28,033 nt of DNA from Candidatus Zixiibacteriota bacterium (GCA_030619345.1 JAUXBO010000001.1:1-28033); one strand, 5' to 3'. Counted from the stretch's first letter, positions 3 through 19,701 are shown. Program-made: numbers and translations. The notes: generated from the letters alone by a model not told the origin.

Positions 3-3000
3 GGGTTCCTTATTACAGGCGATAGTTGCTCAATTTACAACAACGATTTTCACGATAATTCGCTTTTCGGTGTTGATGCTCTGAGCGGCCAGTATTGTCT
101 GTTCGTCAATAACATTTTCAGTGATGACTTGCCTACATCTACCGGTTTGAGAGCCGACGGCAGTTGCACCATGTCCTATACATTGTTTTATAATATGGAT
201 ACTCCGTTCACGGGGGGGGTGAGTTTTTCGGCCGATCTGTGGTACGATGATCCGCAATATGTAGACGTTGCTGGTGGGAATTTCCACCTCAGTTCCTACT
301 CTCCAGCGATTGATGTGGGTAATGATGTCGGTTTGCCTTATAACAATAGCGCTCCCGATTTGGGTGCCTTTGAAACCAGTCCACTGGCTACGATACAGAT
401 TATTCCGGTTCTTGACAGTTTGAACGCTGATTCAAATTATCAGTTTGATATTGTGGCTCTCGACTCTTCTGGATTCCCGACTGATCCCGGGATCATTGAC
501 TGGTCGCATACGTTTTCATCAGGTCTGATCAGTTCTGGGGGACTTTTTGCTCCCGACCTGACCGGTAGCGGAATCGTGACGGCCCAATCGTTGACATACC
601 CAGTTTCGGGATCGACATCCAGTATGTCAGTTGTAGCGGGAGCTTTGGCGACGCTTACCGTTTTTCCTGATAGAGATACAATCTCAGCTGATTCGACCCG
701 ACTGTTTACAGCGGTGGGAGTTGACTCTCACGGGAATAATACGGGCACAGTTGGAAACCTAACGTGGGTTGTGAACGGAAATATCGGAACAATCGACAAC
801 ACCGGACTATTCGATGCCGGTCGGGCGGGAGTTGGATTCATAAATGTTCTTAGCGACTTGGGGCCGAGTGGGTCAAGTGACTCTATTATCGTTGTACCGG
901 GAGAATTGTCACAGCTTTCTATATTGCCACAATCGGCTATTGTTGTTCAGGCGGAAGCGCAACAATTCACAGCCCGTGGATTAGACAACGATTCCAATTT
1001 CGTGATTGACCTGACCGCCGGATCATCGTGGACGACCAGTGATCCCGACGGGGGTGTTGATGGTTCGGGATTATACACGGCCGGGAACATTGTTTCTCCA
1101 CCCGTATACTACGTCAAGGCTGTCAACGGCCCGTTATCAGATTCAGCTGAGGTAACGGTTATCGCCAGCGGAGCGATGACCTATATAAGAATTGAATTAG
1201 CAGATTATTCTATAGTAGATGACACCAGTCTTACGACAGACAATGACACGACCATATTTTATGCTCGTGGTTACGATGCCGGATGGACTCTGATTGGAGA
1301 TGTTATTGTCGATTGGTCTCTTACCGGTGCCGACACAATTGGCGTTTTGACTAACGCAAATGCGGCCTCAACCAATCTGATTTTGACAACACCGGGTCAG
1401 TCGATTATACAGGCTCTGTACAGTGGTTCACTGACTGACTCCACCGGTGTGATTACATGCACCCCGGGAGTAGCCAATCTAATCACGGTTGTTCCCGATA
1501 CCGTTACTCTCACAGCAGGTGATACTCTGGATTTCACAGTAGTGGTAACCGACGCCGATGGTAATGATCCGTCTCCAGGAGTTGTTCCCAGTTGGGATGT
1601 TAGTGGTGGAATTGGGACAATGCAGTTGTCGGGACAATTTGCCGCGCAAACGGCAGGAACCGGTTATGCTGTCGCCACCACTGGCGGACTTGCAGATACT
1701 TCCGGCGCGATTGTAGTAGAAGCGGGACCGTTGAGTAGTATTGTCGTGCTTCCGGACTCTTCTCAAATTACGGTTGATAGTAGCTTGCAGTTTACGGTTA
1801 CGGGAAGCGATGATTATGGGAATGACCAGTCTGCAGGAAATATTAGTTGGTCGCTGACCAATCCGATCGGCACAATTGATGGTACCGGCCTGTTTGTTCC
1901 ATCTGACCTTGGGATAACCCACGCTATTGCGACCTCGGATCTTGGGCCGGTAGACACTTGCGCCTATCTGGAAATTACTCCCGGACGGTTGGTAACTTTG
2001 ACAATCAGTCCTGATTCGGTTGATCTACTCAGTGGCGACGGCCAGCAGTTCACCGTATCGGGCACGGATGCTTTTGGTTATTCAACAGCTGTGGGTGGTA
2101 TAACCTGGTCGGTCCTCGGAGGCATTGGCGACATAGTTTCTTCCGGCGAATTCACGGCCACCACTGTTGGAAGCGGCCACATAATGGCGGTTAGTAGTAT
2201 CGACGCTGTTTCCGATACGAACCTTGCAGTTGTTGTTTCCGCAGCGGCTCCGACAAGACTGAGCATCTCACCGGACGAAGCAAGTATTGCGCTGGGCGAT
2301 TCCCTTGAATTCCATGTTGACGCCTATGATCCAAATTTCAACCCGGTCGATCCGGGGCAATTGTCCTGGAGTGTAATTGGCGGAATAGGGTCAATTGACA
2401 GTTTTGGCAAGTTTACAGCTTCTTCGCCCGGTACCGGGCAGATTGCTGTTTTCAGCACGACCTATAGCCTGAGTGATACCAGTTCGTTTATAATTGTCGA
2501 AGCGTTGGTGGTGACGACTTTACCATTGGGGAATCAGGTCGTGCTATCCGGCGACACTGATCTTTCCATATTGAGCTTTGAGATCAGTAATTTGTTCTCT
2601 GTCGACAAAACAGTCGAAGGGTTCACATTCAATAGTCACGACCACGGAGTTGGAACCGAGTTAGAGATGCTGAATAACATTGACTCTATTCATCTCTATG
2701 TAGATTCGATACCCGATAGCATCCTTAGCAGCATCGCCCTGGATTTCGAGACTAACTTGCTAACGTTCTCGCCGGTGATAATCCCGACCCTCGGAAGTAG
2801 AACCTTCAGAGTACTTGCCGATGCCAGTCGTTTTCCGCACGACGGTGATTCGGCTGATCTCATTCTCATACCGTCATCTGATGTAGTTGTGTCTGATGGT
2901 TCGGTGGTCTCGGGACCGGATACGGTCAACTCTCTCGGGTATTTGATTTTTAACGGGCTTTCTTACAATCAGATTGATCTTATCCCCGCTGGTCTGGATT

Positions 3001-6000
3001 CCATTATGCCCGCAGACAGCATGTACAACGTGATGACTATTGATATACCTCGGAACGGCTACTCTACCGATACCCTGGAGTTATTCAGTATAATAGTGGA
3101 CGCAGCCTCCGGTGGTACTGTTGACGAACTGGATTTCGATTCGCTCGTATTATATGCCGATAACGGTGATAACAACTGGGATGGACCACTGCTGGAGTCC
3201 AGATTAGGTATCCTGGCCTTCACTGGAAGCCGTTGGATCAGAAGTGGTCTTACCCTTGAGCTGGGCACGCCAATCACCCGGCTCTACGTTGGTGCCGTAC
3301 TATCGGAACGACCGACGCGAGGGGCTGTTGCAGCGTTTGGTATTCCCTTGAACGGAATCGAGATGGCGTCCAATAATGACGGTCCTATTGACTCCGAGGT
3401 CAGCGCCGTGGATAGTATCGTAATTTCCACCACCGAAGCGTTCTCGGTCTCAGCCATCGAAGGAGACATCCAGCGGCTTGTTCCGGGAGAAATATCGGAT
3501 GCTTTGATGACCATAGAGCTTCAGAATAACTTTGTTGATCCATACGTGTTGGACAGTCTCATTTTTGATCTTAATGTCAAGTCTGCCTTTTTTGAAGCTC
3601 AGTCTACAAAAGACAGTCAGTTCGACAGTCTGATACTTGTGTCGCACCAGATTTCCGATCTTGGCCAACTCCAGTCCCAGGGGACAGTTATTTCGTCAGC
3701 GTCAGCAGTCGGCGGTATTGCAGCATTTGACTGCAACAGTTTGACCATACTGGGAAGTGGTGATCGTGTGTATTTGAGTGTGATTGCGGCGATAAGTCTG
3801 GATTCGGCCAGAGACGGTAATCTTGTAGACATGTCGCTTCCTGATTCCACTCGAATTGTGTTGACTCCCTCGAGTTCCATAAAAGCCACTTACCCATTAG
3901 AGGGGACCACCGGACATTACATTGACGGTTTCCCTCTGGCGGCCACGATTGTGCACGAACTGGCGGCCCAGACCATTTTTGGTGGACAGTCACGGGTACC
4001 GGTTTTGGACTTCGAACTTCCGGGTAACGGTTATAGCGTGAATGAAATACTCATGCTTATGCGCCTGGTAAATGTCGGTACTCTGGACGATGGTGTAGCG
4101 ATCTCCTTGATGCAACTTTGGTATGATTGGCAGTCCGACGGCTTCACTACCGACGATTCTCTCATAGCTGACTTCAGTTATTCGGGGGGTGAGTGGTCTA
4201 CCGGGCAAGTTACTTATCCCTTTCTGCTACCCGGTCATAGTAGATTTATAGTTACCGTAGGTGCCGCTAGTAATCAGTTCACCGCCGGAACATTCCAACC
4301 TGTTGTACCGGTAGGTGGGGTAGTTTGTTGGCAGGGTCGGGATGGTCCTGATGATGGGGTGATATCAAACAGCGAAACACACCTGGTGATTCCGACTGAT
4401 CGGGTCACGGTGATTTCAATGCCGGGTGTAACAAGAAGCGCCTATCCGGGTTCTACGATCAACCAATTGCTTACATTTGCTCTCTACAATGGTTACGTGG
4501 GTATCGACTCGCTTTCTGTGGAAGCAATCACGTTCACTAATATTTCCAAGTCTCAATCAGGCGCGGTGTGGGCGGACAGTTCCTTAGCGCAAGTATTTTT
4601 GCACTTTGATATCGATAGCAATCGCATCTTTGATGATACCGACAGCCTGATCGGTACGGGATATTTTGCGGGCGGCAGATTGAAAATGAACGGTCTAAAC
4701 ATACTCTTGCAACCCGAAAAAATAAGCTCCTTCTTTATTTCCGCTGATCTCTCTCTTGCTCAGATCGACTCCGACAGTTTGGCTATATCAATTGAACAAG
4801 CTTCTGATTTTGTTTTCTCGGACACCGGTTCTGTCTCTGTTAATGGCGATCTGCCCCTTACCAGCGGCGGCTGGAACATTGTCGACGGCTCAGTTTGGGA
4901 TCAATACCAGTTAATAAATCTGCCGCCAAAATCTGTGATGCCGGGAGATACGGCTGTATTGTTAATGGCTTTCAGGCCGCCAAGTAACGGGAATCTATCT
5001 GACACCCTTATTTCACTGGTGGTGGAAAACGCCAATATATCAAATATCGCCGATGATAACGATATCAACAACATGAATCTGTGGATCGATCTAAATGACA
5101 ATTTGACCTTTGACTCCGGTGATAGTTTGATCGGCTCCTTGAATTTTCACGCAACGGGATATTGGGTCAGTGCAGGATTACAGTTGGAAATAGGCCGAAC
5201 TCCACCGCTGCTGATGTTGGTTGCCGATATTGCACCGGGTGCTGTCCCCGCCCACAAATTCCGTGGGAGTATTCCCACCGGTGGTTGTTTTTTTGAATCT
5301 TCAAACGACGGACCCCTCGATCAAGCTCTAGCAAGTAATAGCCAAGTTACAATTTCAAACGCGGCTCTGGCGGTGTCGCTTCAGAATCACCCATCTCGAT
5401 ATACGGTCGGACAGTCTGTTCATCATGTACTGACCGTGACCAACCTCGGTCTGACGTCATTGGTGGATGTCTCAGCTTACTCAATTATCGGAGACTCCTC
5501 GTTGGTGATCATCGACAGCAGCCAAAGTGGTCCGCTACCGCTCGCGGTTGGAGCTTCCACAGATTTTAATTTCTATTACACAGCAGTTGACACCGGCATA
5601 CTTGTCTGGCAATTCCAGGCAACGGCAGACGCTACCGGAGATTCCTCGATTGTACTTGCTACGGACTCAGTAGAGTTCCAACGAGCTGTAACCGGCGTTC
5701 CGATTCAGTTTGTAAACAGTATTCCAACTTCGGTTACCAAGGGGCAGACAAATATATTTCCGTTCAGTCTCATTGTAGACCATCCGAATACTGATCTTTT
5801 TGCGGCCTCGATAAGGCTGGACAGTTTGACTCTGCGGGTGGAAGATGGCTCAGGCAATGGTCGTCGAGCAGATTCAGTTCTATCACGACTGGTACTTGCT
5901 ACTGGCTATACTAATCTGACCATAATGGAGACAATTCCTGCCACCTCGGAACTAACCCTGATCTTCAGCGAACCGGTAGTAATTGATCCTTCGCAACAAC

Positions 6001-7994
6001 GGAGTTTCTCGCTTCTGATTGATATCGACAGCGCTGCCGCTGCCGGTAGTTTTGCGATGTCAATCATGGGCAGTTCCTCAATATCAGTAGTGGATCACAA
6101 CAGTTCGCAGCCGGTGAGCCTTGATCCCGGTCTCCAGTTCCCGATGGTGACCGCTTCCTGCCGGATTGATAATCCGTCGGCCAAATTGCTTCTATCCTCA
6201 GAATCTGTCCTGCAGTCCACGGTCAATTATGGCCAGGACGATCTGGACCTGGTGAAGTTACTGTTTACGCACCCCGGTGAATCCGGAAGTTCGCCTATTC
6301 AGGTGACTTCGGTTACCGTAAATTTTGTAGACAGCCTGCTCAGTCCAATTATTGCGACTCACCTGATCAAGCGCCTTCAGATTCGCAGACAGCAGGTCAT
6401 AGTGGCTGAGGTGACTAGTTTTGGAAGTTTAACTGATTCGGTTGAGGTCGTTCTGAATTCGCCTTTAACACTCAATCCGGGTGAGCGGGATTCGCTGGTC
6501 ATTCGAATATCAGTCGACGATCAATCGATATACAATAATTTTGGACTCGTCGTTTCCGACAGCACACGCTTTGTGGTAAGAGACCTGAGTTCCGGTTCGC
6601 TGATTGATATTGCGACCGATACAACAAGTCTGGCGACTGGTTCTGTATTTCCGATTTATTCCGGCAGCGCCCGACTCATGCAGCCGGCAGAAACGGCGGA
6701 AGTTTGTTTGACCTCGTTACTTCCGGAGGCTGTGGTCGGTGGCAAAGACAGTCTGGCGATGGTTGAAATATCTGTCGAATATCCGTCTACTCCCGATCAT
6801 TCTTCCGTTATCATTTTTGCGGCCAATGTCAACGTAATGGACTCGCTCGGTCGGCCTCTGGACCCGGATCGACTTTTTGACCGTATTGGTTATGCCGTTG
6901 ATGGACAGACTCCAATCTATCAATCGTTTGTCCAGTTAATCAATGGTTCCGCTCACTTTACTTTTGGGAGCGGTATCATATTGAATCCAGGCGACACCAG
7001 GACGATTTGGCTGATAGCTGACATTGAAGCCGATGTTCCTTTTACCAATTTTGCGATCTCAATCACCGAGACCAATGCCATGATATTGAGAGATGCCACA
7101 GACACAAGCGGCAGTCCCGGCTATCTTAGTGCCGGTTCCTGCAGTGGGCAATTCCCGTTTGTCACCAATACTGTTGACATTTTCCTTCCCGCAGGTCGGC
7201 CTTCGTTTGAAATTGCAAAACTTCCGGTTCAGGTAGCCGTCAAGGGTCAGGAGATGCTTAAAATATTCGGCGGAAAACTTAAGTACGAAGGCTCCGGCGC
7301 TCAAGGCGACATATCGGTAGAGGGTATAGGCGGCAAACTGACCCGGAGACTCCCCGATGGTTGGCAGATCACAGCCCCTGAGCAAGCTCTCTCGAAAATA
7401 AGCGTGATGGTCGATGGCAAGTCCGCCTTTGAGGACTCTCTGTTCTCCGGTGACAGTCTGCAATTAGACTTTGTTCAGCCGTACACGCTTGCCAGTGATA
7501 AGGAGATCGCTATCGAGATTTTCGTATCGCTAACGGAAGACTTGTCGCTCGGCAATTACTGCCTAAAGTTTGATGACTCCGGCTTTATCAAATTGTTAGA
7601 CAAGAATATTTCCAATAAGATATTTGCTTCAGGGAACGAGGAATACCCTCTTTATGCAACTGAAATATCAGTTCTCGAAGCAAACCTCCAGGAATCATTT
7701 GTCAACTACCCGAATCCATTCCATCCGTCGAATGGTGAACATACTACCTTAGCCTATGTACTGCCCGCCGATGCACATGTCGACATTGAGGCATTTACCA
7801 TCACCGGACAATTAGTTGCCGTAATAGCTGACAACCAGTTTCGTTCCGAGGGTGCCCATTCCGAAGATGTCTGGGCGGCGCTTAATGATCGCGGTCTCGA
7901 AGTAATCAGCGGCACTTACTATTGTCGCATTACGGCCCGTTATAGTTCCGGTAAAGTGGAAGAAGTTCGCAGGAAGATAGCGGTGATTCGATGA
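3..7994 (+). CDS. Giant repeat-rich secreted/surface protein, 5'-truncated at the window edge (>=2663 aa): end of a right-handed beta-helix, 8 Ig-like repeats, 3 doublet repeats, an Ig-like domain, 4 further beta-sandwich repeats and a C-terminal T9SS type-A/FlgD-like sorting domain
   Basis: The frame is open from nt 3 (GFLITGDSCSIYNNDFHDNSLFGV...LFVNNIF), so the TTG at 129 is not the true start. The N-terminal part has beta-helix-like NN ladders and the 'NFHLSSYSPAIDVG...PDLGAFE' cap typical of secreted beta-helix proteins. The C-terminus reads 'FVNYPNPF...GTYYCRIT...RKIAVIR'. The protein is Ser/Thr/Asp/Val-rich throughout. Confidence 0.9.
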   Translation, partial: GFLITGDSCSIYNNDFHDNSLFGVDALSGQYCLFVNNIFSDDLPTSTGLRADGSCTMSYTLFYNMDTPFTGGVSFSADLWYDDPQYVDVAGGNFHLSSYSPAIDVGNDVGLPYNNSAPDLGAFETSPLATIQIIPVLDSLNADSNYQFDIVALDSSGFPTDPGIIDWSHTFSSGLISSGGLFAPDLTGSGIVTAQSLTYPVSGSTSSMSVVAGALATLTVFPDRDTISADSTRLFTAVGVDSHGNNTGTVGNLTWVVNGNIGTIDNTGLFDAGRAGVGFINVLSDLGPSGSSDSIIVVPGELSQLSILPQSAIVVQAEAQQFTARGLDNDSNFVIDLTAGSSWTTSDPDGGVDGSGLYTAGNIVSPPVYYVKAVNGPLSDSAEVTVIASGAMTYIRIELADYSIVDDTSLTTDNDTTIFYARGYDAGWTLIGDVIVDWSLTGADTIGVLTNANAASTNLILTTPGQSIIQALYSGSLTDSTGVITCTPGVANLITVVPDTVTLTAGDTLDFTVVVTDADGNDPSPGVVPSWDVSGGIGTMQLSGQFAAQTAGTGYAVATTGGLADTSGAIVVEAGPLSSIVVLPDSSQITVDSSLQFTVTGSDDYGNDQSAGNISWSLTNPIGTIDGTGLFVPSDLGITHAIATSDLGPVDTCAYLEITPGRLVTLTISPDSVDLLSGDGQQFTVSGTDAFGYSTAVGGITWSVLGGIGDIVSSGEFTATTVGSGHIMAVSSIDAVSDTNLAVVVSAAAPTRLSISPDEASIALGDSLEFHVDAYDPNFNPVDPGQLSWSVIGGIGSIDSFGKFTASSPGTGQIAVFSTTYSLSDTSSFIIVEALVVTTLPLGNQVVLSGDTDLSILSFEISNLFSVDKTVEGFTFNSHDHGVGTELEMLNNIDSIHLYVDSIPDSILSSIALDFETNLLTFSPVIIPTLGSRTFRVLADASRFPHDGDSADLILIPSSDVVVSDGSVVSGPDTVNSLGYLIFNGLSYNQIDLIPAGLDSIMPADSMYNVMTIDIPRNGYSTDTLELFSIIVDAASGGTVDELDFDSLVLYADNGDNNWDGPLLESRLGILAFTGSRWIRSGLTLELGTPITRLYVGAVLSERPTRGAVAAFGIPLNGIEMASNNDGPIDSEVSAVDSIVISTTEAFSVSAIEGDIQRLVPGEISDALMTIELQNNFVDPYVLDSLIFDLNVKSAFFEAQSTKDSQFDSLILVSHQISDLGQLQSQGTVISSASAVGGIAAFDCNSLTILGSGDRVYLSVIAAISLDSARDGNLVDMSLPDSTRIVLTPSSSIKATYPLEGTTGHYIDGFPLAATIVHELAAQTIFGGQSRVPVLDFELPGNGYSVNEILMLMRLVNVGTLDDGVAISLMQLWYDWQSDGFTTDDSLIADFSYSGGEWSTGQVTYPFLLPGHSRFIVTVGAASNQFTAGTFQPVVPVGGVVCWQGRDGPDDGVISNSETHLVIPTDRVTVISMPGVTRSAYPGSTINQLLTFALYNGYVGIDSLSVEAITFTNISKSQSGAVWADSSLAQVFLHFDIDSNRIFDDTDSLIGTGYFAGGRLKMNGLNILLQPEKISSFFISADLSLAQIDSDSLAISIEQASDFVFSDTGSVSVNGDLPLTSGGWNIVDGSVWDQYQLINLPPKSVMPGDTAVLLMAFRPPSNGNLSDTLISLVVENANISNIADDNDINNMNLWIDLNDNLTFDSGDSLIGSLNFHATGYWVSAGLQLEIGRTPPLLMLVADIAPGAVPAHKFRGSIPTGGCFFESSNDGPLDQALASNSQVTISNAALAVSLQNHPSRYTVGQSVHHVLTVTNLGLTSLVDVSAYSIIGDSSLVIIDSSQSGPLPLAVGASTDFNFYYTAVDTGILVWQFQATADATGDSSIVLATDSVEFQRAVTGVPIQFVNSIPTSVTKGQTNIFPFSLIVDHPNTDLFAASIRLDSLTLRVEDGSGNGRRADSVLSRLVLATGYTNLTIMETIPATSELTLIFSEPVVIDPSQQRSFSLLIDIDSAAAAGSFAMSIMGSSSISVVDHNSSQPVSLDPGLQFPMVTASCRIDNPSAKLLLSSESVLQSTVNYGQDDLDLVKLLFTHPGESGSSPIQVTSVTVNFVDSLLSPIIATHLIKRLQIRRQQVIVAEVTSFGSLTDSVEVVLNSPLTLNPGERDSLVIRISVDDQSIYNNFGLVVSDSTRFVVRDLSSGSLIDIATDTTSLATGSVFPIYSGSARLMQPAETAEVCLTSLLPEAVVGGKDSLAMVEISVEYPSTPDHSSVIIFAANVNVMDSLGRPLDPDRLFDRIGYAVDGQTPIYQSFVQLINGSAHFTFGSGIILNPGDTRTIWLIADIEADVPFTNFAISITETNAMILRDATDTSGSPGYLSAGSCSGQFPFVTNTVDIFLPAGRPSFEIAKLPVQVAVKGQEMLKIFGGKLKYEGSGAQGDISVEGIGGKLTRRLPDGWQITAPEQALSKISVMVDGKSAFEDSLFSGDSLQLDFVQPYTLASDKEIAIEIFVSLTEDLSLGNYCLKFDDSGFIKLLDKNISNKIFASGNEEYPLYATEISVLEANLQESFVNYPNPFHPSNGEHTTLAYVLPADAHVDIEAFTITGQLVAVIADNQFRSEGAHSEDVWAALNDRGLEVISGTYYCRITARYSSGKVEEVRRKIAVIR
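384..2507 (+). repeat. Eight tandem ~87-aa Ig-like (Big_2/intimin-like) protein repeats
   Basis: Each unit follows roughly L-x-I-x-P-D-x6-7-(Q/E)-F-T-x-x-G-x-D-x-x-G-N...W-S-x-x-G-G-I-G-x-I-x-x-x-G-x-F-x-A-x-x-x-G. Units start LATIQIIP, LATLTVFP, LSQLSILP, MTYIRIE (divergent), ANLITVVP, LSSIVVLP, LVTLTISP and PTRLSISP. Confidence 0.8.
2508..5360 (+). repeat. Three tandem ~320-aa doublet (A+B) protein repeats
   Basis: Motifs recur at a ~320-aa period: PRNGY (3048), PGNGY (4020), PSNGN (4980); NDGP (3375), RDGP (4338), NDGP (5304). LxL(Y/W)xD plus acidic D-x-x-(F/W)-D loops and a conserved W recur in each B unit, and the A units end in (D/N)G. Confidence 0.75.
5688..7676 (+). repeat. Four ~165-aa beta-sandwich protein repeats (C1-C4)
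   Basis: Units begin VTGVPIQF, NPSAKLLL, QPAETAEV and LPAGRPSF. They share 'V-x-x-G-Q/K', 'P-x-x-(I/L)-x-P-G-(E/D)' (PVVIDPSQ, PLTLNPGE, GIILNPGD, PYTLASDK) and a terminal F/Y-P (QFPMVT, VFPIYS, QFPFVT, EYPLYA). Confidence 0.65.
7698..7994 (+). other. C-terminal T9SS type-A-like / FlgD Ig-like sorting domain of the giant protein
   Basis: Sequence FVNYPNPF-x-...TTLAYVLP...VDIEAFTITGQLV...W...NDRG..VISGTYYCRI...RKIAVIR matches the YPNP...G.Y...K pattern known for type-A CTDs. Confidence 0.8.
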
Positions 7995-9997
7995 AGGGTA
8001 GAATTATCGTATTCATTATGGTGGCTTTGTTAGCTGCACCTGTCTGGGGTGGGGAGGCCGGTACAGAGTCTCCATTTTCGATGGGGGCGGGTGCGGCCGA
8101 TATTGCTCTTGGTGGTTCAGCAGTGGCCAGTTCGGCCGGTTGGACAGCGTCCTACTGGAATCCTTCACGATTGGCTTCGATGGAGCAAACAGAGCTGGGT
8201 GGTTTCCATAGTCGTCTGTTTGACAGCGACGTTTCTTATCAATATCTGGGCATCGTACACCCGACGCTGGACCTCGGTACTTTTGGCTTTGGACTTTTTA
8301 GATTGGGGATTGGCGGTATTGAAAAAAGAGATGCCTCCAATCTGTATCTTGGTGATATTGAGGACAATCGACTTGGATTGTATCTGGCCTATGGGCGAAT
8401 GATTTCGGATTATCAGATCGGTTTGGCTCTGTCGATGGAACATCATTCTATCGATAACTACAAATCTACATCATCACCCGGTGCTACAATTGCTGTGTCG
8501 CGGTCATGGGAGATGGACGGGCGGATAAGAGGGGTGAAGGCGGCTCTGGTGCTGCGCAATGTCCTGAGTCCTTCGATGAAACTGGACAATGACGACGTGA
8601 ACTTGCCACTGTCGACCGATGTTGGTATCAGTGTTCCGGTACGACCTAAAGTGAGTTGGGATCACTTGGTTTATTTTCACTTAACTTTGAACAAGGTTGA
8701 CGCTCTGCCAGCGAAGATATCTACTGGTATAGAATACAATATTGGGCAATTGCTGGCTCTGCGTGGCGGCGCAAACGGCGGAAAGCTCACCGCCGGTGTC
8801 GGCATCAGAATCCGATCAGTCGGTTTTGATTACGCTTTCGTGGATCGTGATCTCGGTACGCTGCATATGTTTAACTTGACCAGTGTATTTGGAAAGAGTC
8901 AATCAATCAAACGGCAGGAACGCATAACTCGGCGCGAACAAGAATTCAATGATCTGATGTCCCAGCAGTTGACCGCCAGCAACGAGAAAATGTTATCGCA
9001 ACTGGTCGATCGCGGCGAAATGGCGCTTGATGGTGGTGATTTGGAACAAGCCGAAAGCCAGTTTGACCGGGCGCTGTTCCTGGCCCGTGCCTCCGGCTAT
9101 GATACGACTCAAATATTTGCCACGCTCGTGGACGTTCGTAATCGACTGGACGAAGTAGGGCGTCTCCAGCAGTACAATGCTCATCTGGATTCTGCTCAGG
9201 TGAATATGGCCGCAGGTGATTTTCTTGCTACGCGGTATTATGCATCGTTGGCTCTCAAGTATGTTGATAATTCCGAACAGGCCCGACAATTGATCGAAGA
9301 AGCCGAAGAAAACCTTCACCGCGAGAGCTCCCGCGAGGAGCTTATCAAACAGCGCATTCTTCTTTCGGATTCTCTCGTCAGTTACGGACGGACAGACGAG
9401 GCGATCAGCATTCTTTTGAGTCTTGTTGAAATTGCGCCCGATGATAACACAGTCTTGATGGCTCTTCGCAGAGCACAATTTGAGCGCCTTCGGGCCAAAG
9501 CTTCCCAAGCCTACAACGACAAACGCCTCACCAATGCCATCGTTAGCCTCGATTCCGCATTAGGTTACTTCCCCGGGCATCAATGGTGTGAAGAGATGAA
9601 GAGCATGATCTTCGGTCAAATCAAAGTCAGCAAGAACAAGGGAACAAAGTCAGTCCAACTGAAAAAGACCGTGTTGAGTGCGGAACTGCGAAGAGAAGTT
9701 GAAGACACCTACCAAAGAGGACAGCAGTTGTTTACCTCCGGCAACATGACGGTGGCAATTGAAAACTGGGAGAGAGTGGAACGGATTGCGCCCGATTATG
9801 CCTCGGTTCGAGAGTATCTCATCAATGCCTACAAGTTTGTTGGAGTCGAATTGTACAGCCAGGGAGACCTTACACAGGCAGTCGAAATTTGGAAGAGGGC
9901 GGCTCAGCTGCGGCCGGATAACCTGGAGATTGGGGAATATATAAAGAGAACTGAAAACGAAATCAGAAAGCTGAAAGAATTATCTTATGAACCGTAA
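7991..9997 (+). CDS. PorV/PorQ-family outer-membrane beta-barrel (approx. aa 21-301) fused to a C-terminal TPR/coiled-coil region (approx. aa 302-668)
   Basis: Signal peptide MKGRIIVFIMVALLAAPVWG. PorV-like N-terminal motif 'GAGAADIALGGSAVA...ASYWNPSRLA'. Alternating beta-strands end 'GFDYAF...LHMFNLTSVFG'. TPR-like helices follow (e.g. 'TYQRGQQLFTSGNMTVAIENWERVERIAPD', 'LYSQGDLTQAVEIWKRAAQLRPDN'). ATGA overlap with the upstream stop. Confidence 0.8.
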   Translation: MKGRIIVFIMVALLAAPVWGGEAGTESPFSMGAGAADIALGGSAVASSAGWTASYWNPSRLASMEQTELGGFHSRLFDSDVSYQYLGIVHPTLDLGTFGFGLFRLGIGGIEKRDASNLYLGDIEDNRLGLYLAYGRMISDYQIGLALSMEHHSIDNYKSTSSPGATIAVSRSWEMDGRIRGVKAALVLRNVLSPSMKLDNDDVNLPLSTDVGISVPVRPKVSWDHLVYFHLTLNKVDALPAKISTGIEYNIGQLLALRGGANGGKLTAGVGIRIRSVGFDYAFVDRDLGTLHMFNLTSVFGKSQSIKRQERITRREQEFNDLMSQQLTASNEKMLSQLVDRGEMALDGGDLEQAESQFDRALFLARASGYDTTQIFATLVDVRNRLDEVGRLQQYNAHLDSAQVNMAAGDFLATRYYASLALKYVDNSEQARQLIEEAEENLHRESSREELIKQRILLSDSLVSYGRTDEAISILLSLVEIAPDDNTVLMALRRAQFERLRAKASQAYNDKRLTNAIVSLDSALGYFPGHQWCEEMKSMIFGQIKVSKNKGTKSVQLKKTVLSAELRREVEDTYQRGQQLFTSGNMTVAIENWERVERIAPDYASVREYLINAYKFVGVELYSQGDLTQAVEIWKRAAQLRPDNLEIGEYIKRTENEIRKLKELSYEP

Positions 9998-11573
9998 TGC
10001 CAACGAGGTTTTCCAACAGGAATGGCCACATCCCTCCGAATTCAAAAAATCGATCCGGATGGAGTTTTCCATCTACATATCATCTATGATTCTGCTTCTG
10101 ATGATCATTGCCGGATCGATTATTACTGACCGGTACATTGATGTTGTGACGCAGGCGGCAGCTGACAAACTCCTGGTTCAGGCCCGTTCGTATTCCGGAC
10201 CGGCCGGGAAGTTGATAATCTCCACAACTGGACCAGACGCCTTGTTGCTGAACAATATCTGCAAGAAACTAGCGGCAGATAATTCTGATATCACCTGGGT
10301 CAGTATTACGGGGCGCGAAGACGTTCTTCTGGCCCATACTGACATTAGAAAAGTTGCGACCGGCGGTCGGTTGGCTCCTGTTGTCGGCGGTGAATATCCT
10401 TCGCTGTTAAGAGACGGGGAGGGATTTAAGGTAGAGGCTGAAGCCATCAGAATCAGTGTTCCAATTACCGAAGGTGAGGTTCTGGTGGGACATCTTCACC
10501 TGGTTTCATCGGCTGCGAAGATTGCCTCGGCTCGCAAGGACTCTATACTGGCGGTAGCTACAGTTTCCATTTTGGTACTCCTGTTCGGCCTGCCGCTGAT
10601 AATGATAGGGCTACATCACAAGCTTCGCCCAATCAGTATCATAACGGATCATCTTAAGGACATTAAGTTTGATAACATCAAACTGGACATCCCGGTCAGT
10701 GGTCGAAATGAGCTTGGCTACCTGTCTGAGACTCTCCGAGTGATGGGCGGGAAACTCAATGCTGTCCAGAAAGAGATGATAGAGTCGGAGAGAATCTCCA
10801 GAGAATTCGAAATCGCCAGAGAGATTCAAGCCAGTATTCTCCCATCTTCCATTCCGACAAACGATGATTATAGTTTTACCGGCTTTTACCGCAGCGCCAA
10901 AGAGGTGGGAGGCGACTACTATGACTTCATTAAGTTGTCAGACAACAAAGTTGCCTTTCTGGTAGCAGACGTTTCCGGGAAATCGCTGCCCGGAATGTTG
11001 GTTATGTTGCTAACCCGAGATATTGTAAAGAATCACTGTTATAAAACGCTCGACCCGGTATCTCTTTTGTGCAAGGTCAACAGTGAACTTCTTGCCAATA
11101 TGAAGAAAGGGATGTTCGTCACGATGTTTTACGGTGTTTTGGACTATTCGTCCGGCTTGTTCCGTTTTGCGTCGGCTGGCCACAACCCACTTATTGTTAT
11201 GAATGATCACGAAGAGCCTCGCTTGATAAAAACCAAAGGCTTCCCGCTGGGAATGGTACCTTCGGATAAGTTTGACAATAGAATCGAACGGGGAGAACTG
11301 AAGCTCAAAGCCAAAGACTGGCTCATTCAGTTCACCGACGGAATCAATGAAGCTCAGGGCCGGGACGGCGAGGAATTCGGAATGGACCGCTTGGTCAGCC
11401 AATTGCAAAGTACGGCCGCACTAAGTCCGGAGCAGTTGATTGAATCAGTCATTGCAAATCTTGACCAATTTGTTGGCGAGCAGCCTCAATTTGATGACAT
11501 AACTCTAATTGCCCTGAAATTAAGTACAACATCTGTCGATAAAAATGTTATGCAGAAGGAAGAGTGTTATTGA
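9987..11573 (+). CDS. Membrane sensor / HAMP / PP2C (SpoIIE/RsbU-family) Ser/Thr phosphatase
   Basis: Two hydrophobic segments (approx. aa 27-47 and 187-209) flank a ~140-aa extracytoplasmic domain. HAMP 'LRPISIITDHLKDI...RNELGYLSETLRVM'. PP2C motifs intact: EVGGDYYD, ADVSGK, FTDGINEA, FDDITL. Start overlaps the upstream gene by 11 nt. Confidence 0.92.
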   Translation: MNRNANEVFQQEWPHPSEFKKSIRMEFSIYISSMILLLMIIAGSIITDRYIDVVTQAAADKLLVQARSYSGPAGKLIISTTGPDALLLNNICKKLAADNSDITWVSITGREDVLLAHTDIRKVATGGRLAPVVGGEYPSLLRDGEGFKVEAEAIRISVPITEGEVLVGHLHLVSSAAKIASARKDSILAVATVSILVLLFGLPLIMIGLHHKLRPISIITDHLKDIKFDNIKLDIPVSGRNELGYLSETLRVMGGKLNAVQKEMIESERISREFEIAREIQASILPSSIPTNDDYSFTGFYRSAKEVGGDYYDFIKLSDNKVAFLVADVSGKSLPGMLVMLLTRDIVKNHCYKTLDPVSLLCKVNSELLANMKKGMFVTMFYGVLDYSSGLFRFASAGHNPLIVMNDHEEPRLIKTKGFPLGMVPSDKFDNRIERGELKLKAKDWLIQFTDGINEAQGRDGEEFGMDRLVSQLQSTAALSPEQLIESVIANLDQFVGEQPQFDDITLIALKLSTTSVDKNVMQKEECY

Positions 11574-12337
11574 TGTCCGTTGATACCAGAAAAACTCCGA
11601 TGCTCGAACTGCCGGTAGATGCCGGGTTTGAGCGGCAGCAGGAGTTCATAGTCGAACTTAAAGAGTCAGTCAAACATGCTGTAGGCGAACTGTTTGTGGA
11701 CTGTTCAAAAGTTGAGCAAGTTACTTCCACGCATGTCAATATCCTGTGGCGAGCGTATTCGATCTGTAAGGATTCCGGCGTCAGGATGATATTGAAGAAT
11801 CCTACCGAGAGTGTTGTACGGGTCCTCAGCATACTCGACCTCCGTGAGATGTTCTTGATTGACGAAAGTAATGATTACTCCAAAGTCAGTCAGGAGGGAA
11901 CACAGAAGCCCCAGACTCTTGACAATCTCCTTTCAATGAAGATCAAACTCGAATCCAGTGAGATTGCCACCGGTCTAAAACGCGTGCAGGAATTTCTAAA
12001 AAGCGTACCTGTAACTTCAGCCTGTTCTGTGGAAATAGAGACTATATTCTACGAGCTGGCTACCAATGTACTTTTGTACAGTAAGCTAACCTCCAGCGAT
12101 CTTCTGGACTGTTCTGTCGAAGTGACCAAGAATAGAATTACAATGAAATTCATTGATTCAGGTGTGCTGTTCGATCCCTCGACTGCTGAAATACGGTACG
12201 ATCCCAAGTCAATGATTTCCAATTACCAGAAGCGTGGGTTGGGGCTGGTAATGATACGAAGAATGGCAGATACCATTAGTTATGAACGTCGGGATGACGG
12301 TGTGAACATAGTTACAGTGATGAAAGACTGGAGATAA
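11573..12337 (+). CDS. Fusion of an N-terminal STAS domain and a C-terminal RsbW/SpoIIAB-like Ser kinase (HATPase_c_2)
   Basis: STAS 'LFVDCSKVEQVTSTHVNILW...LKNPTESVVRVLSILDL'. GHKL boxes: ELATN, DSG, GLGL. Likely start is the ATG at 11573 (TGATG overlap with the phosphatase stop, AAGGAAGAG upstream) rather than the GTG at 11564. Confidence 0.85.
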   Translation: MSVDTRKTPMLELPVDAGFERQQEFIVELKESVKHAVGELFVDCSKVEQVTSTHVNILWRAYSICKDSGVRMILKNPTESVVRVLSILDLREMFLIDESNDYSKVSQEGTQKPQTLDNLLSMKIKLESSEIATGLKRVQEFLKSVPVTSACSVEIETIFYELATNVLLYSKLTSSDLLDCSVEVTKNRITMKFIDSGVLFDPSTAEIRYDPKSMISNYQKRGLGLVMIRRMADTISYERRDDGVNIVTVMKDWR

Positions 12338-12340
12338 CCG

Positions 12341-12679
12341 ATGTCGGATAGCAAGATAATTCAGCAGCAAGTAAACGACAATTCGCTCAGAATAAAAACG
12401 CCAGGGGTACTCGACAATAGCAATGCCCATGAAATGATAGAGATACTAATCGACGCCCACAAGCGTGGTTTTGTCAACATCGTCATCGATATGAGCGATC
12501 TGGGTTTTATCTCATCTGCCGGAGTGGGATCTATACTCGGTACCGTGGAACTTTTCCGCGAAGTAGGTGGGGATATCATTTTGTGTAACCTGACTCCTTC
12601 GGTCGTGCACGTGTTTGAGGTACTCGATCTGACTGATTATCTAACCGTGCGGAGCGAATTGAAAGAAACAATCAGATAG
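12341..12679 (+). CDS. STAS-domain anti-sigma-factor antagonist (RsbV/SpoIIAA-like)
   Basis: 'IVIDMSDLGFISSAGVGSIL...GGDIILCNLTPSVVHVFEVLDL'; the Ser equivalent to SpoIIAA Ser58 is retained. GGAG RBS at 12330-12333. Confidence 0.92.
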   Translation: MSDSKIIQQQVNDNSLRIKTPGVLDNSNAHEMIEILIDAHKRGFVNIVIDMSDLGFISSAGVGSILGTVELFREVGGDIILCNLTPSVVHVFEVLDLTDYLTVRSELKETIR

Positions 12680-12692
12680 ATTATGATTACGA

Positions 12693-14378
12693 GTGGATAA
12701 GATGACTCCTGATACAAAACAACTATTTGAGAATTATGCAGCGGGCGGATATGACGAAGTCTCTTTTCAGCGCAATTTGATGGCGCTTGATGCGCTTTCA
12801 AAGCTCGCCAGACAGTTTTCCAACCAACCACACCTGGAGCACTTGTCATCGTTACTGTTGCTAACATTAGCCGGGCAGTTTTCCATAAGCAGCGCCTTTG
12901 CCTTGTTCTGCGATCCCGGGTTGTCTGATTCCGGCCAGGCCTACATGGGATTTGGTAAACTGAAGAACAGCACTGTTCTTGAGAAAATGGTCATACCCGT
13001 TTGCATTCGCGAACATTTTGTTACCAATCCTGATCCGGTGCTGGTGGATGAATACGAATCGCTGGCTGAATGCGGTGAAATTCAGGAAATCTTCCAGACG
13101 AACAATATCAAAATCATCGTGCCGCTGGTGCACAACGACAGTCTGATCGGTATTATCGGTCTGGGAGAGAAAGTCACTAAGAAAGAATTTGAGCCCAATG
13201 ACCTTGACATTCTGTGTACACTGGCTCATTCGATTACTCCCTTTATCTCAAATTCTATCCTGTTCCGTGAATTATCCGACCTCAACTGCTGGTATGTTGA
13301 TATTTTAAATTCCGTCAAACAGGCCGTGCTTATTTTTGATAGCAACTATCGGTTGAAGTTGGCAAATCTTTCAGCCATAAGCATTTTGGAAAAGCTGCAT
13401 GGCAACGCAGCCATTTACGCCACCCGTAAACCCTCGATTGATGAGCTATTGACGCAGTCTGCATTTCCGGGCTGGCATAGTCGTCTCGAAACTGCAAATA
13501 GTACGGGGATGAGCAGAATGCTCGAGAGTATGGTAGCCTATGTCGGGGATGAAGAGCTCATTTTCAACGTACACACGGGGAGATTCAAACGGGACAATCA
13601 AGGCGACTACGATATCTTCGTAACCCTGGACAACATCACCGATCAGAAAGCAAGCGAGCAACGTCTGTTTGAGGTAGAGAAATTCGCCGAAAAGGGTGTT
13701 ATGGCGTCGACTATCGCTCACGAACTAAACAATTTCCTGGGACTGATCCTGGGTGGAACTGAGTTGGCTGGAATGGCTTTGGCCAAGGGGAACACAGACA
13801 AAGTGGCTGCTACTCTGGAGAAGATCAAAGGAAACGTGGGGAAAATGGAACGTTTCACGGCTGGACTGGTCGACTACACTCGCCTGAATACCAAAAAGCA
13901 CGAGACTAACTTAAATGACATAATCTCCGATGTACTGTCTTTTGTCGCCGTGCAGAAGAAATTTACCCGTATTACGATTACCACTGATCTGGCGAAAGAT
14001 CTCCCGTCTTTTACTCTCGATGCCGATCAGATGTCTCAGCTTATCATGAACCTTGTCAACAATGCCGCCGATGCTATCAAGGAGTCGGGGAAACCCACTC
14101 GCCGGATATCCGTTTCCACCAGATTCGAGAATATCTATGCTGTTCTGATCATTTCTGACAACGGAACGGGAATCAAGCCTGAGCTCAAAGAGAAACTCTT
14201 TAAGGCTCACTTTACGACAAAAGAAAAGGGGCATGGATTTGGTCTGGTCACTTGCTCAAAAATTATCTATAATCACAAGGGCAAAATTGACATTGAGACT
14301 GAAATTGGAAAAGGCTCTACTTTCATGCTATCTTTCCCCATCGCCCAATCCACTGCATCCGATTTATCAGACAGTTGA
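12693..14378 (+). CDS. Cytoplasmic GAF-PAS-like sensor histidine kinase (start may be the ATG at 12702)
   Basis: GAF 'IVPLVHNDSLIGIIGLGEK...DLDILCTLA'. H-box 'STIAHELNNFLG', N-box 'QLIMNLVNNAADA', G1 'ISDNGTGI', F/G2 'HFTTKEKGHGFGL'. No evident signal peptide or transmembrane segment. Confidence 0.92.
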   Translation: MDKMTPDTKQLFENYAAGGYDEVSFQRNLMALDALSKLARQFSNQPHLEHLSSLLLLTLAGQFSISSAFALFCDPGLSDSGQAYMGFGKLKNSTVLEKMVIPVCIREHFVTNPDPVLVDEYESLAECGEIQEIFQTNNIKIIVPLVHNDSLIGIIGLGEKVTKKEFEPNDLDILCTLAHSITPFISNSILFRELSDLNCWYVDILNSVKQAVLIFDSNYRLKLANLSAISILEKLHGNAAIYATRKPSIDELLTQSAFPGWHSRLETANSTGMSRMLESMVAYVGDEELIFNVHTGRFKRDNQGDYDIFVTLDNITDQKASEQRLFEVEKFAEKGVMASTIAHELNNFLGLILGGTELAGMALAKGNTDKVAATLEKIKGNVGKMERFTAGLVDYTRLNTKKHETNLNDIISDVLSFVAVQKKFTRITITTDLAKDLPSFTLDADQMSQLIMNLVNNAADAIKESGKPTRRISVSTRFENIYAVLIISDNGTGIKPELKEKLFKAHFTTKEKGHGFGLVTCSKIIYNHKGKIDIETEIGKGSTFMLSFPIAQSTASDLSDS

Positions 14379-14707: not shown

Positions 14708-16720
14708 ATGAAGCAAACCGGCAAGCTTTTCGCGTTCTTGCTATTAGCAACTCTGTCTGTCAGTTTATCAGTACACGGCGACCCCTATAACTATCTGTCT
14801 CCCAATGAAATAAATGAGCGCTTGAAGTCTCTCAAGACCGCCTCGGGAGTCAGTGCTACAACTCATTTACTTGCAAAGACCGCAGGGGAACGGGAACTTC
14901 TTCTGCTTGAAATCTCCGGCGGCAATCCTGAAGGCTCTGCGATTTTGGTTGTGGCTAATATGGAAGGCAACTATCCGCTTGCCAGTGAAGCAGCCGTTAG
15001 ATTGAGCGAACTGTTGGCCAACGACTGGCAGGAGATGCTCAATAACCATAAGTGGTATATTGTTCCGGTGGGGAACCCGGATGGATACGCCCGTTTCTTC
15101 TCAAGCCCGTCTTCAATCAACTATACAAATAATCGTTCGGTCAATTCGGACATGGATGACGCTTTTGATGAAGACGGCCCAGAAGATCTCAATAAAGATG
15201 GTTTTATAACCATAATTCGTCAGCCGCATCCGGAAGGAAAGTGGATCGAAGTCGAATCCAATCCGATGCTGATGAAGAAAGCCGATGCCGCCAAAGGAGA
15301 AACCGGGAAGTACCGGATTTTTCCTGAGGGCATTGACAACGACGGCGACGGCAAAATTAACGAAGACGGTCCCGGTGGTGTGAATCCGGGACATAATTTC
15401 CCCCACGACTTTCAGCACTATACTTCCACCGACGGCCTCTTTGCGGCCAGCGAAAACGAAGCGCGTGGGATTCTGGAGTTCTGCTTTGAGCATACCGAGA
15501 TAGCTATGGTTATCACGTTCGGTCGCGTAAACAGCCTCAAGGAAGTGCCCAAGTCCGGTCGCAAGGCTGAAGCAGATCAGAGCAAATACAAAGTCCCGGA
15601 ACGTTGGGCAAAAAGAATTGGACTCGATCCAGAAAAAGAGTATCCAATCAAAGACCTGCTGGCTTTGGCCCGCGATTATACCGGCTATAAGGAGTTAACC
15701 GAAGACCAACTATTGCAGTGGTTGGGCGTTGGGGCCGCAGTCAATCCCGCAAAGGGAGACCTTTCGTACTGGGAAGAGATCAGCGAGAAATACAACGAGT
15801 TCATAAAAGAAGCGGGACTCGACGGTAAGCGGCTTGATCCACAAGGGTTTTCTTCCGGTTCTATAGAAGAGTGGTCGTACTATCAATACGGGGTTCCGAC
15901 GTTTGCTATGGATTTCTGGACCTTACCGGAACCAGAAAAAGAGGAAAAGAAAGAAGAACAAGCGGGAATAACACTCGATTCACTTGAAAACATGACCAAT
16001 GATCAGTTTATCGAACTTGGTGAAGAACGAATAGATGAATTTCTTAAGGCCAACGACGCGCCTTCGATGTACACGGCCACAATGGTTATCAGTGCCCTTA
16101 AAGGCGGAATGATGGATACCAAAAAGATGGCCAAGTTCATGCGGAAAAATAAAAAGAAGGATGATGCAGGTGGCGCCGATGAGGAAGACGAAGCGCTTTT
16201 TGCTTACCAGCCCGATGCGTTCATTGCCTGGCAGTCGTATAATCATCCCACCCTCGGTAAAGTTGAAATAGGGGGACAGAAACCGTATGCGCAGCTTCTT
16301 CCGGCATCGGACGAGGTAGACAGCCTGTTAAGCAAACAACTCTCGTTTGTCAAGGAACTGGCGGAGAGGCTCCCCAGTCTCTCTATCAGCCGAACGGTGG
16401 TTGAAGCGGTTAGCTCGGATGTTTATCGCCTCGATGTTTGGGTGGCGAACAACGGATTCCTGCCGTATCCAACTCATCAGGGAAAACGAAGTCAGCGGCC
16501 CGCGCCTCCGGCTTTGACGCTCGATGAGAATAACCTTACCATTCTCGAAGGTTGTGCACGAAAACCCCTGGGATTGATCGACGGATCAGGTGGCGTTGAA
16601 AAAGTCACCTGGCTTTTGCAGGGAGTAGCAGGTAGTAAAATCAAATTGAGTTTGCAGTCTCTAAGCGCCGGTACTGACGAACTGACGATAACCCTCACCG
16701 AAGGGGAGACCTCACGATGA
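14708..16720 (+). CDS. Secreted M14 (zinc carboxypeptidase)-fold protein with degenerate active site (probable pseudo-peptidase)
   Basis: Signal peptide and M14 scaffold collinear with the downstream paralog. HxxE is replaced by EGNY (14963-14974), NRN by GHN, the third Zn His by Gly (ITFGR) and the catalytic Glu by Asp (AMDFW). Acidic DxDGDG inserts and a C-terminal Ig-like domain are present. Confidence 0.85.
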   Translation: MKQTGKLFAFLLLATLSVSLSVHGDPYNYLSPNEINERLKSLKTASGVSATTHLLAKTAGERELLLLEISGGNPEGSAILVVANMEGNYPLASEAAVRLSELLANDWQEMLNNHKWYIVPVGNPDGYARFFSSPSSINYTNNRSVNSDMDDAFDEDGPEDLNKDGFITIIRQPHPEGKWIEVESNPMLMKKADAAKGETGKYRIFPEGIDNDGDGKINEDGPGGVNPGHNFPHDFQHYTSTDGLFAASENEARGILEFCFEHTEIAMVITFGRVNSLKEVPKSGRKAEADQSKYKVPERWAKRIGLDPEKEYPIKDLLALARDYTGYKELTEDQLLQWLGVGAAVNPAKGDLSYWEEISEKYNEFIKEAGLDGKRLDPQGFSSGSIEEWSYYQYGVPTFAMDFWTLPEPEKEEKKEEQAGITLDSLENMTNDQFIELGEERIDEFLKANDAPSMYTATMVISALKGGMMDTKKMAKFMRKNKKKDDAGGADEEDEALFAYQPDAFIAWQSYNHPTLGKVEIGGQKPYAQLLPASDEVDSLLSKQLSFVKELAERLPSLSISRTVVEAVSSDVYRLDVWVANNGFLPYPTHQGKRSQRPAPPALTLDENNLTILEGCARKPLGLIDGSGGVEKVTWLLQGVAGSKIKLSLQSLSAGTDELTITLTEGETSR

Positions 16721-18444: not shown

Positions 18445-18463
18445 TCTGAACAGGGTAATTTTG

Positions 18464-18487
18464 AAGGGGCGGTCGCGACCGCTCCTT
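18464..18487. other. GC-rich palindromic stem-loop (REP-like / mRNA-stabilising), no U-tract
   Basis: AAGGGGCGGT-CGCG-ACCGCTCCTT: 10-bp stem including one G-U pair, 4-nt loop, between the peptidase and RND genes. Confidence 0.6.
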
Positions 18488-19689: not shown

Positions 19690-19701
19690 GAAGATACTGC
19701 C

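Follow-up and report, generated by a model that had tools for sequence, protein, structure and literature searches.

The stretch of DNA discussed here ('the window', 28,033 nucleotides from Candidatus Zixiibacteriota bacterium, GCA_030619345.1 JAUXBO010000001.1:1-28033) is contig C252 of a 2.28-Mb Zixibacteria metagenome-assembled genome (MAG; 306 contigs, 85.6% complete). Between positions 3 and 14378 of its + strand it carries six co-oriented genes that form one conserved unit, inherited as a block in Zixibacteria. The unit encodes a giant surface protein with a C-terminal sorting domain (CTD) as used by type IX secretion systems (T9SS), a predicted PorV-like outer-membrane barrel extended by a TPR tail, a membrane phosphatase of the PP2C type, a STAS-kinase fusion, a free STAS protein and a histidine kinase. 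The best explanation for this arrangement, to which we would give an even chance, is that the unit wires the T9SS surface protein and its barrel to a phosphatase-driven partner switch; a trans-envelope relay of this kind is plausible.

The six genes as a conserved unit

The layout of the unit, as derived from open reading frame (ORF) listing, profile searches, hydropathy, AlphaFold2 (AF2) models and Foldseek comparisons, is as follows (aa, amino acids; TM, transmembrane):

3..7994, + strand: giant surface protein gene (ORF open at its 5' end, 2663 aa)
7692..7994, + strand: T9SS sorting domain at the C terminus (a type-A-like CTD carrying NYPNPF; aa 2564-2663 in the frame of the window)
7991..9997, + strand: barrel-TPR gene (668 aa; ORF, profiles, AF2, Foldseek)
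aa 1-~21 of the barrel-TPR protein, + strand: signal peptide, the only hydrophobic feature of the protein
8063..8890, + strand: PorV-like hatch and beta-barrel (aa 25-300; NF033709, AF2, Foldseek)
8900..9994, + strand: all-helical TPR tail (aa 304-668; AF2 secondary structure, Pfam TPR, Foldseek TPR superhelices)
9987..11573, + strand: phosphatase gene (528 aa; ORF, profiles, motifs, AF2, hydropathy)
10128..10544, + strand: periplasmic Cache/PDC-like sensor domain (aa 48-186; AF2 topology between two TM helices)
10614..10781, + strand: HAMP linker (aa 210-265; HAMP called in orthologs and paralog, AF2 helices)
10824..11522, + strand: PP2C/SpoIIE catalytic domain (aa 280-512; PF07228, invariant acidic motifs)
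11573..12337, + strand: STAS-kinase gene (start ATG 11573, alternative GTG 11564)
12341..12679, + strand: free STAS gene (TIGR00377)
12693..14378, + strand: histidine kinase gene (GAF-(PAS)-HisKA-HATPase profiles)

The giant and barrel-TPR genes meet at a junction of -4 (ATGA) and the barrel-TPR and phosphatase genes at -11, while the phosphatase/STAS-kinase junction is -1 (TGATG at 11571-11575, with a Shine-Dalgarno GAAGGAAGAG upstream) and the junctions of STAS-kinase with STAS and of STAS with histidine kinase are +3 and +13, respectively. An initial annotation, made from the sequence of the window alone, had listed the same six genes and the same junctions (-4, -11, -1, +3, +13), which the ORF listing matches; the domains that it had named in all six products are likewise recovered by profile searches. 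A scan for promoters and terminators returned counts equal to the shuffled expectation, and nothing informative at the gene junctions.

The conservation of this arrangement was followed across the phylum by scanning 201 genomes for the barrel-TPR protein and for the phosphatase's N-terminal part with the sensor (aa 1-218). Full-length barrel-TPR orthologs occur in 57 of the 201 genomes, distributed patchily over eight families, and the sensor part was found in exactly those 57, every match adjoining a barrel-TPR gene; in two genomes (G104 and G138) both are present in two copies. Forty orthologous loci were fetched, drawn from dozens of genera and including closed genomes, and in all 40 the order and strand of the giant, barrel-TPR, phosphatase, STAS-kinase and STAS genes are kept. 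The histidine kinase comes last, on the same strand, in 38/40 loci, the exceptions recorded being a contig that ends first (one locus), a gene placed 240-310 nt further along (two loci) and a gene on the opposite strand in one second copy. The manner in which the genes abut is conserved as well: the giant/barrel junction is -4 in 36/40 loci, the barrel-TPR and phosphatase genes overlap by 4-26 nt in 40/40, and the phosphatase and STAS-kinase genes overlap in 39/40. Three distant orthologs (39-46% identity, on closed or long contigs) keep the six genes between unrelated flanks. The initial annotation had supposed that phosphatase and STAS genes would accompany the barrel-TPR gene elsewhere, and these neighbours are indeed not lacking (linkage in 57/57 genomes and 40/40 loci); by such comparison, a functional linkage of the unit's genes is strongly supported.

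Second copies of the whole cassette are the loci L074 (G104:C5) and L072 (G138:C1). In L074, the CTD is all that the ~2000-aa protein encoded upstream has in common with the giant protein; its passenger appears to have been replaced, with CTD and barrel kept.

A paralogous cassette is present in the genome of the window itself (L079, G000:C218, 39-11270). Its order is a CTD-like protein, joined through an ATGA overlap to a PorV/PorQ+TPR protein, followed by a fusion phosphatase, a STAS protein, a GGDEF cyclase and Wza/Wzz-type export genes for exopolysaccharide (EPS), and this order is kept in 19/20 further genomes of the phylum. The barrel-TPR protein of this sister cassette (611 aa) scores 109 bits on NF033709, above the cut-off of 90, and most of the 201 genomes hold weaker barrel matches of ~610-640 aa, the size of the sister family. 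Its membrane protein (676 aa) fuses an RsbW-type kinase to Cache-like, HAMP and PP2C domains, whereas the window cassette has a separate phosphatase, a STAS-fused kinase and a histidine kinase as its last gene. The two phosphatases align collinearly between TM1 and the end of the PP2C domain, periplasmic domain included (28% identity, E 2e-61), and homology between the barrel proteins extends over the barrel (E 6e-26) as well as the TPR part (E 4e-8). Because both proteins are homologous across the cassettes, the pair of barrel-TPR and membrane phosphatase has evidently duplicated as a whole and persisted as such, while its outputs differ; because the sister cassette repeats the pairing, and does so in 19/20 genomes, that unit appears to be ancient. 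Close to its 3' end, the sister STAS ORF contains nine consecutive A's (L079:6627-6635); 46/200 shuffles reach this length, so that the run is not significant by its count alone.

Beyond the phylum, a search with the phosphatase alignment gave, among the matches listed, mostly unrelated SpoIIE phosphatases aligned over the catalytic domain only. Five of the 80 listed loci had a PorV or TPR match: three Zixibacteria-type cassettes (two of them otherwise labelled), the locus L103, and one Spirochaetes contig on which a PorV-like gene lies 5.8 kb away. In L103 (4985-11672), which belongs to another, uncultured bacterium, the gene immediately before a full-length sensor-phosphatase homolog (31% identity) encodes a 645-aa TPR-only protein that has no barrel; a STAS protein, a fusion with an RsbW-type kinase and a diguanylate cyclase are encoded downstream, and the housekeeping genes purA/serA lie upstream. 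Since L103 pairs a TPR-only protein with a phosphatase homolog, the link between TPR domain and phosphatase would appear to persist without the barrel.

As to the origin and surroundings of the window, the DNA runs that contain the stretch are cold-seep and marine-sediment metagenomes, and named homologs of its proteins are almost all from Zixibacteria. The region downstream of the unit (14708-28033) encodes two M14 peptidase paralogs, together with HlyD-type and large efflux-like genes. None of these genes keeps a conserved place beside the cassette; in the three annotated orthologous loci the flanks differ.

From the surface protein to the cytoplasmic switch

The giant gene is cut off at its 5' end by the edge of the contig, leaving 2663 aa in the window. 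Because its ortholog in the same genus is 3147 aa long (with a Beta_helix domain at 411-540), ~484 aa of the giant protein are evidently missing. The protein comprises an N-terminal beta-helix (right-handed), a Big_2 domain (Pfam) and ~2000 aa of repeats that carry no assignment; its orthologs, present in 39/40 loci, are 33-68% identical. The CTD in the window had no Pfam match at cut-off in the profile search, and it matches the PorU, PorZ and M6i (M6-like) models, in their CTD segments, better than it does TIGR04183. TIGR04183 is matched by 33/40 of the orthologous CTDs (E <= 1e-3), and the CTD segment of the PorU model by 40/40. The CTD tag that the initial annotation had placed on the giant protein agrees with the PorU-CTD match of every ortholog, although the window copy itself remains below the TIGR04183 cut-off.

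The secretion system required by such a tag is at hand. The host genome encodes a T9SS core, judged on SprA, PorU, CTDs and PorV/PorQ: SprA_N is above its cut-off, the PorU sortase scores 610 bits, and at least 31 Por_Secre_tail domains are present. The same holds for four closed or nearly closed relatives, since in these and the host genome SprA is above cut-off, PorU scores 610-690 bits and the Por_Secre_tail domains number 31-59 or more in each. Two stand-alone PorV/PorQ proteins of 335 aa (210 and 98 bits) are also encoded in the host genome; because they are there, the TPR-bearing barrel can be regarded as an extra, specialised copy.

That barrel matches NF033709, the PorV/PorQ family, over aa 31-297 (81 bits, E 1.1e-22), and Pfam TPR matches cover aa ~340-650. 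The AF2 model of the whole protein (pLDDT 85, from an alignment of 69 orthologs) has a short N-terminal hatch, a barrel at 67-300 and an all-helical region at 304-666 that starts with a 45-residue helix. When this model was compared with the PDB by Foldseek, the best matches were 8gl6_F (E 2e-10, TM-score 0.66) and 6h3i_F, which are PorV chains from SprA translocon complexes, with TPR superhelices and FadL/TodX ranked behind them. Judged by this model, the barrel domain has the PorV fold, and the PorV barrel with a ~370-aa TPR tail of the initial annotation reappears as a PorV fold with a helical/TPR tail of ~365 aa, on the evidence of AF2, Foldseek and profiles alike. Because the termini of outer-membrane barrels face the periplasm, that tail should be periplasmic. 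Searches of the ESM Atlas by shape and feature returned other fusions of PorV-like barrels, with TPR or HEAT domains in clusters labelled Elusimicrobiota, Calditrichota and Eisenbacteria, and with FlgD_ig domains in clusters labelled WOR-3 and Krumholzibacteriota.

The phosphatase consists, in order, of an N-terminal tail, TM1, a periplasmic domain, TM2, a HAMP linker and a PP2C domain of the SpoIIE family. Its two TM segments (~27-47 and ~187-209) are found both by hydropathy and by AF2, and PF07228 matches aa 319-512 (150.8 bits, 5.6e-44), alongside HAMP-like matches. Six acidic residues (D310, D313, D328, D451, D503 and D504) are invariant in 40 sequences, comprising the window and 39 orthologs. 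The sensor-HAMP-PP2C phosphatase with a periplasmic domain at ~48-186 that had been described initially is thus corroborated in its two TM segments and in its intact catalytic motifs. In the AF2 model (pLDDT 83, 40 sequences), TM1 extends as a long periplasmic helix, followed by a second helix, five strands, TM2, the HAMP helices and the PP2C domain. By this predicted topology the periplasmic domain is Cache-like (a Cache/PDC-like sensor), profile support being limited to a weak sCache_3_2 match in the paralog (21 bits against a cut-off of 28.4), with no Pfam match in the sensor of the window. A Trp-Pro pair in the cytoplasmic N-tail before TM1 (aa 13-14, 10023-10028) is also invariant in 40 sequences (the window and 39 orthologs).

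On the cytoplasmic side, the STAS-kinase combines a STAS domain with a HATPase_c_2 domain (aa 134-253, 51 bits against a cut-off of 27.4). The RsbW/SpoIIAB equivalog models match it weakly, and its fused STAS domain keeps a VTS(S/T)H motif in orthologs. The free STAS protein is of the anti-sigma-antagonist type (TIGR00377, 60.7 bits, above the cut-off of 53.45), and its canonical phospho-site, F(I/L)SSAGVG, is found in 14/14 displayed sequences (the window and 13 orthologs). Hydropathy revealed no hydrophobic segment in either protein. To judge from these motifs, the parts of a partner switch are present: a PP2C phosphatase with metal-binding Asp residues, a STAS protein with its phospho-site and a kinase of the RsbW/SpoIIAB type. 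The histidine kinase has GAF, HisKA and HATPase_c domains by profile and an H-box that reads STIAHEL. Its one moderately hydrophobic stretch (aa 53-73) is no clear TM segment and is read as part of the GAF domain rather than as a membrane helix, and the protein is likely a soluble output or integration module of the unit. In some orthologous cassettes (L042, L052, L053 and L065) the sixth gene instead encodes hybrid kinases of 699-1002 aa with a C-terminal receiver.

The constraint acting on the different parts was compared across 38 orthologs as the mean of their pairwise identities:

Sensor domain, residues 48-120: 57%
PP2C domain: 56%
CTD: 55%
HAMP: 53%
Free STAS: 49%
Barrel: 47%
TPR halves: 36-44%
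Giant passenger: 37-39%
STAS-kinase: 30-34%
Histidine kinase: 31-43%

The sensor's conservation, which equals that of the catalytic domain, would fit a constant partner, and a CTD that is far more conserved than its passenger would fit a specific match between CTD and barrel. In a mirror-tree analysis, the residual distance correlations of the TPR halves with the sensor halves and HAMP were 0.19-0.30, as compared with 0.27 for PP2C and STAS, an accepted pair. Those of the sensor segments and HAMP with the two STAS domains fell between -0.23 and 0.01 for 6/7 values, the seventh (sensor N-half with free STAS) being 0.19.

The proposed relay and its rivals

From these components we infer a relay whose steps include cargo retention on the barrel, a TPR-sensor contact, a direction of signalling and an output from STAS to kinase. 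The giant beta-helix/repeat protein would be exported by the T9SS via its C-terminal sorting domain, and would be received and probably held by the dedicated PorV-family barrel that the next gene encodes, in the manner of PorU on PorV and PorZ on PorQ. In those pairs CTD-bearing T9SS surface proteins are anchored on PorV/PorQ barrels (PMC5562754), and the CTD of PorZ is not cleaved (PMC8545088). The ~365-residue helical TPR arm that the barrel is predicted to bear in the periplasm would be the outer-membrane partner for the Cache-like domain that the two-TM HAMP-PP2C phosphatase exposes to the periplasm, so that the state of cargo and barrel (loaded or empty, bound or strained) would set phosphatase activity. 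Within the cytoplasm, the phosphatase would dephosphorylate the free STAS, the RsbW-type kinase fused to a second STAS would phosphorylate it, and either unphosphorylated STAS or freed kinase could modulate the soluble GAF/PAS histidine kinase. This last step is modelled, by analogy with SiaABCD, on the STAS partners that activate diguanylate cyclases in SiaC-SiaD, HsbA-HsbD and BgrV-BgrR (PMC8457831). A more specific version is advanced tentatively, at somewhat less than an even chance: the giant protein and its private barrel may together constitute an outer-membrane receptor whose TPR arm directly gates the PP2C phosphatase, independently of TonB and of sigma factors, and which would occur among Zixibacteria in at least two ancient paralogous versions (one with a histidine kinase, the other with a c-di-GMP/EPS output). 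The conservation of CTD and sensor, the exchanged passenger of L074 and the TPR-only pairing of L103 lend indirect support to cargo-barrel and TPR-sensor coupling.

Several observations weigh against such a relay. The two family assignments at its outer end fall short of their thresholds in the window, where the barrel's 81 bits lie below the curated NF033709 cut-off of 90 and the CTD, with 22.0 bits on TIGR04183, lies just below the cut-off of 23. TPR domains serve generically as scaffolds, and the docking partner of the arm could instead be some part of the T9SS or of the envelope; the ligands of Cache-like domains are usually small molecules; and the mirror-tree signal for TPR-sensor coupling is weak and drawn from pairs that are not independent, a hint only. 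At its inner end the unit itself has neither a response regulator nor a sigma factor, and its output is uncertain because the architecture found at the histidine-kinase position is variable and its co-evolution with the other parts is poor (raw r 0.23-0.36). Finally, a check for transcripts found zero coverage of the locus in three metatranscriptomes of the same cold-seep study and no RNA run with the stretch, one DNA run covering it at low depth.

The alternatives differ in how much of the envelope they join together. At one extreme, the adjacency might be due to chance or to assembly, with no functional link at all, as the fragmentation of the source MAG into 306 contigs might allow; this was rejected and is given practically no weight, since the same order recurs in 40/40 loci from dozens of genera, closed genomes included, with co-occurrence in 57/57 genomes. 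A rather unlikely but considerably more serious reading is co-regulation without contact across the envelope, in which the switch would sense a soluble periplasmic ligand and control the expression or activity of the surface protein, and the TPR tail would only dock the barrel to T9SS machinery, cell wall or periplasmic cargo. It explains the synteny data as well as physical coupling does, and it would leave each domain in a familiar role, since small molecules are the typical ligands of Cache/PDC sensors (as the sCache_3_2 match of the paralog, weak as it is, would agree with), TPR proteins such as PorW/SprE are T9SS scaffolds, and membrane PP2Cs of the SiaA type function with no outer-membrane partner. 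Physical coupling is favoured instead by the particular bond between two genes of the six, for barrel-TPR and phosphatase overlap at stop and start in 40/40 loci, co-occur perfectly, are duplicated together, and are paired again in the old paralogous cassette and, as a TPR-only protein with a phosphatase, in L103; the first half of the sensor domain is also unusually well conserved.

Two further possibilities retain a connection across the periplasm. A secretion or assembly checkpoint, which we consider unlikely as such, falls within the best explanation as the special case where cargo occupancy, instead of an external cue, would be the signal: the TPR arm would report receipt of cargo by the barrel, and through feedback the switch would adjust the synthesis of the operon or that of matrix genes. 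The Btr partner switch of Bordetella is coupled to secretion, and the conservation of CTD and barrel together despite a replaced passenger in L074 would agree with such a checkpoint; its output gene, on the other hand, is a kinase without a known target. The checkpoint also accords with the binding of CTDs in transit by PorV (PMC5562754), 8gl6 being the top structural match. Inside-out control, which appears quite improbable, would reverse the direction of the signal as in LapD/LapG/LapA, a cytoplasmic state altering the HAMP and periplasmic domains of the phosphatase, which would then grip or release the TPR arm and so control retention, exposure or release of the giant protein. The unit does have the same list of parts as the Lap system (a giant adhesin made of repeats, an anchor in the outer membrane and, like LapD, a HAMP protein of the inner membrane whose output domain is periplasmic), the GAF/PAS input domains of the terminal kinase could feed signals in, and the position of the sister cassette beside EPS export genes and a cyclase suggests biofilm logic. 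Yet PP2C enzymes act on cytoplasmic substrates, the invariant catalytic motifs suit an output role, the unit contains no periplasmic protease or other effector, and no PP2C is known to operate inside-out.

Comparison with known systems

The initial annotation had remarked that no described system joins a PorV-like barrel to a partner switch, and a full-text literature search agrees, having found no published work that links PorV to partner-switching and none that joins Zixibacteria and type IX secretion. The comparison suggests that the unit is a variant of partner-switching with an unprecedented outer-membrane/T9SS input module, and an undescribed wiring from surface to cytoplasm. Known routes by which signals cross the outer membrane of Gram-negative bacteria are few (TonB-dependent transducers, Rcs/Cpx lipoprotein sensors and the inside-out control of Lap), and the unit is a candidate for a new trans-envelope route, built from T9SS parts and Ser/Thr phosphorylation. 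It would tie T9SS adhesins to biofilm-type decisions, because the sister cassette has a diguanylate cyclase beside EPS export genes; it would extend the PorV-family repertoire to fusions with periplasmic arms; and it would provide a plausible input for sigma-less partner switches, many of which are found in uncultured phyla.

In its overall logic the unit is comparable to LapA/LapD/LapG and FecA-FecR-FecI, each of which connects a component of the outer membrane or surface with a signalling protein that sits in the inner membrane and has a periplasmic domain. The likeness is one of envelope-spanning logic, with no protein families in common: the unit lacks the c-di-GMP receptor and protease of Lap, and the TonB-dependent transducer, anti-sigma factor and extracytoplasmic function (ECF) sigma factor of Fec.

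Its cytoplasmic half resembles the RsbU-RsbV-RsbW and SpoIIE-SpoIIAA-SpoIIAB switches, with which it shares a PP2C phosphatase, a STAS protein with the canonical phospho-site and a GHKL serine kinase; it differs from them in having no sigma factor, a transmembrane receptor phosphatase and a kinase fused to an atypical STAS. Also similar are SiaABCD of Pseudomonas aeruginosa, HsbR-HsbA-HsbD and BgrSTUWV-BgrR, which like the unit consist of a membrane HAMP-PP2C protein, a serine kinase and a small STAS-like substrate, and in which the unphosphorylated substrate switches an enzyme and not a sigma factor (PMC8457831). The resemblance extends to a partial SiaA match of the window phosphatase and to the diguanylate cyclase of the sister cassette. 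Membership of the unit in the SiaABCD system was nevertheless rejected, the SiaA model scoring 53.7 bits against a cut-off of 700, the substrate being a classical STAS and not DUF1987, and the output gene being a histidine kinase; in addition, the kinase of the unit is fused to a second STAS, and the SiaABCD-type systems are without the outer-membrane barrel, TPR protein and secreted giant protein, all three of which the unit has.

For its outer half, the SprB/SprF-type pairs of gliding Bacteroidota offer a parallel, in that the gene of a giant T9SS surface protein directly precedes the one for the small outer-membrane barrel dedicated to it. Those pairs combine a type-B CTD with a PorP/SprF barrel and carry no attached signalling genes, whereas the unit combines a type-A-like CTD with a PorV/PorQ-like barrel bearing TPRs, and has such genes attached. 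In placing a CTD protein with a barrel of the PorV/PorQ family, a pairing that here is deduced from their genes, the unit resembles PorU:PorV, PorZ:PorQ and SprA-PorV (6H3I, 8GL6). The known PorV and PorQ proteins are stand-alone barrels of ~335-400 aa, whereas the barrel of the unit would add to that fold a periplasmic TPR tail of 365 aa, a cargo gene of its own and a link to a phospho-switch.

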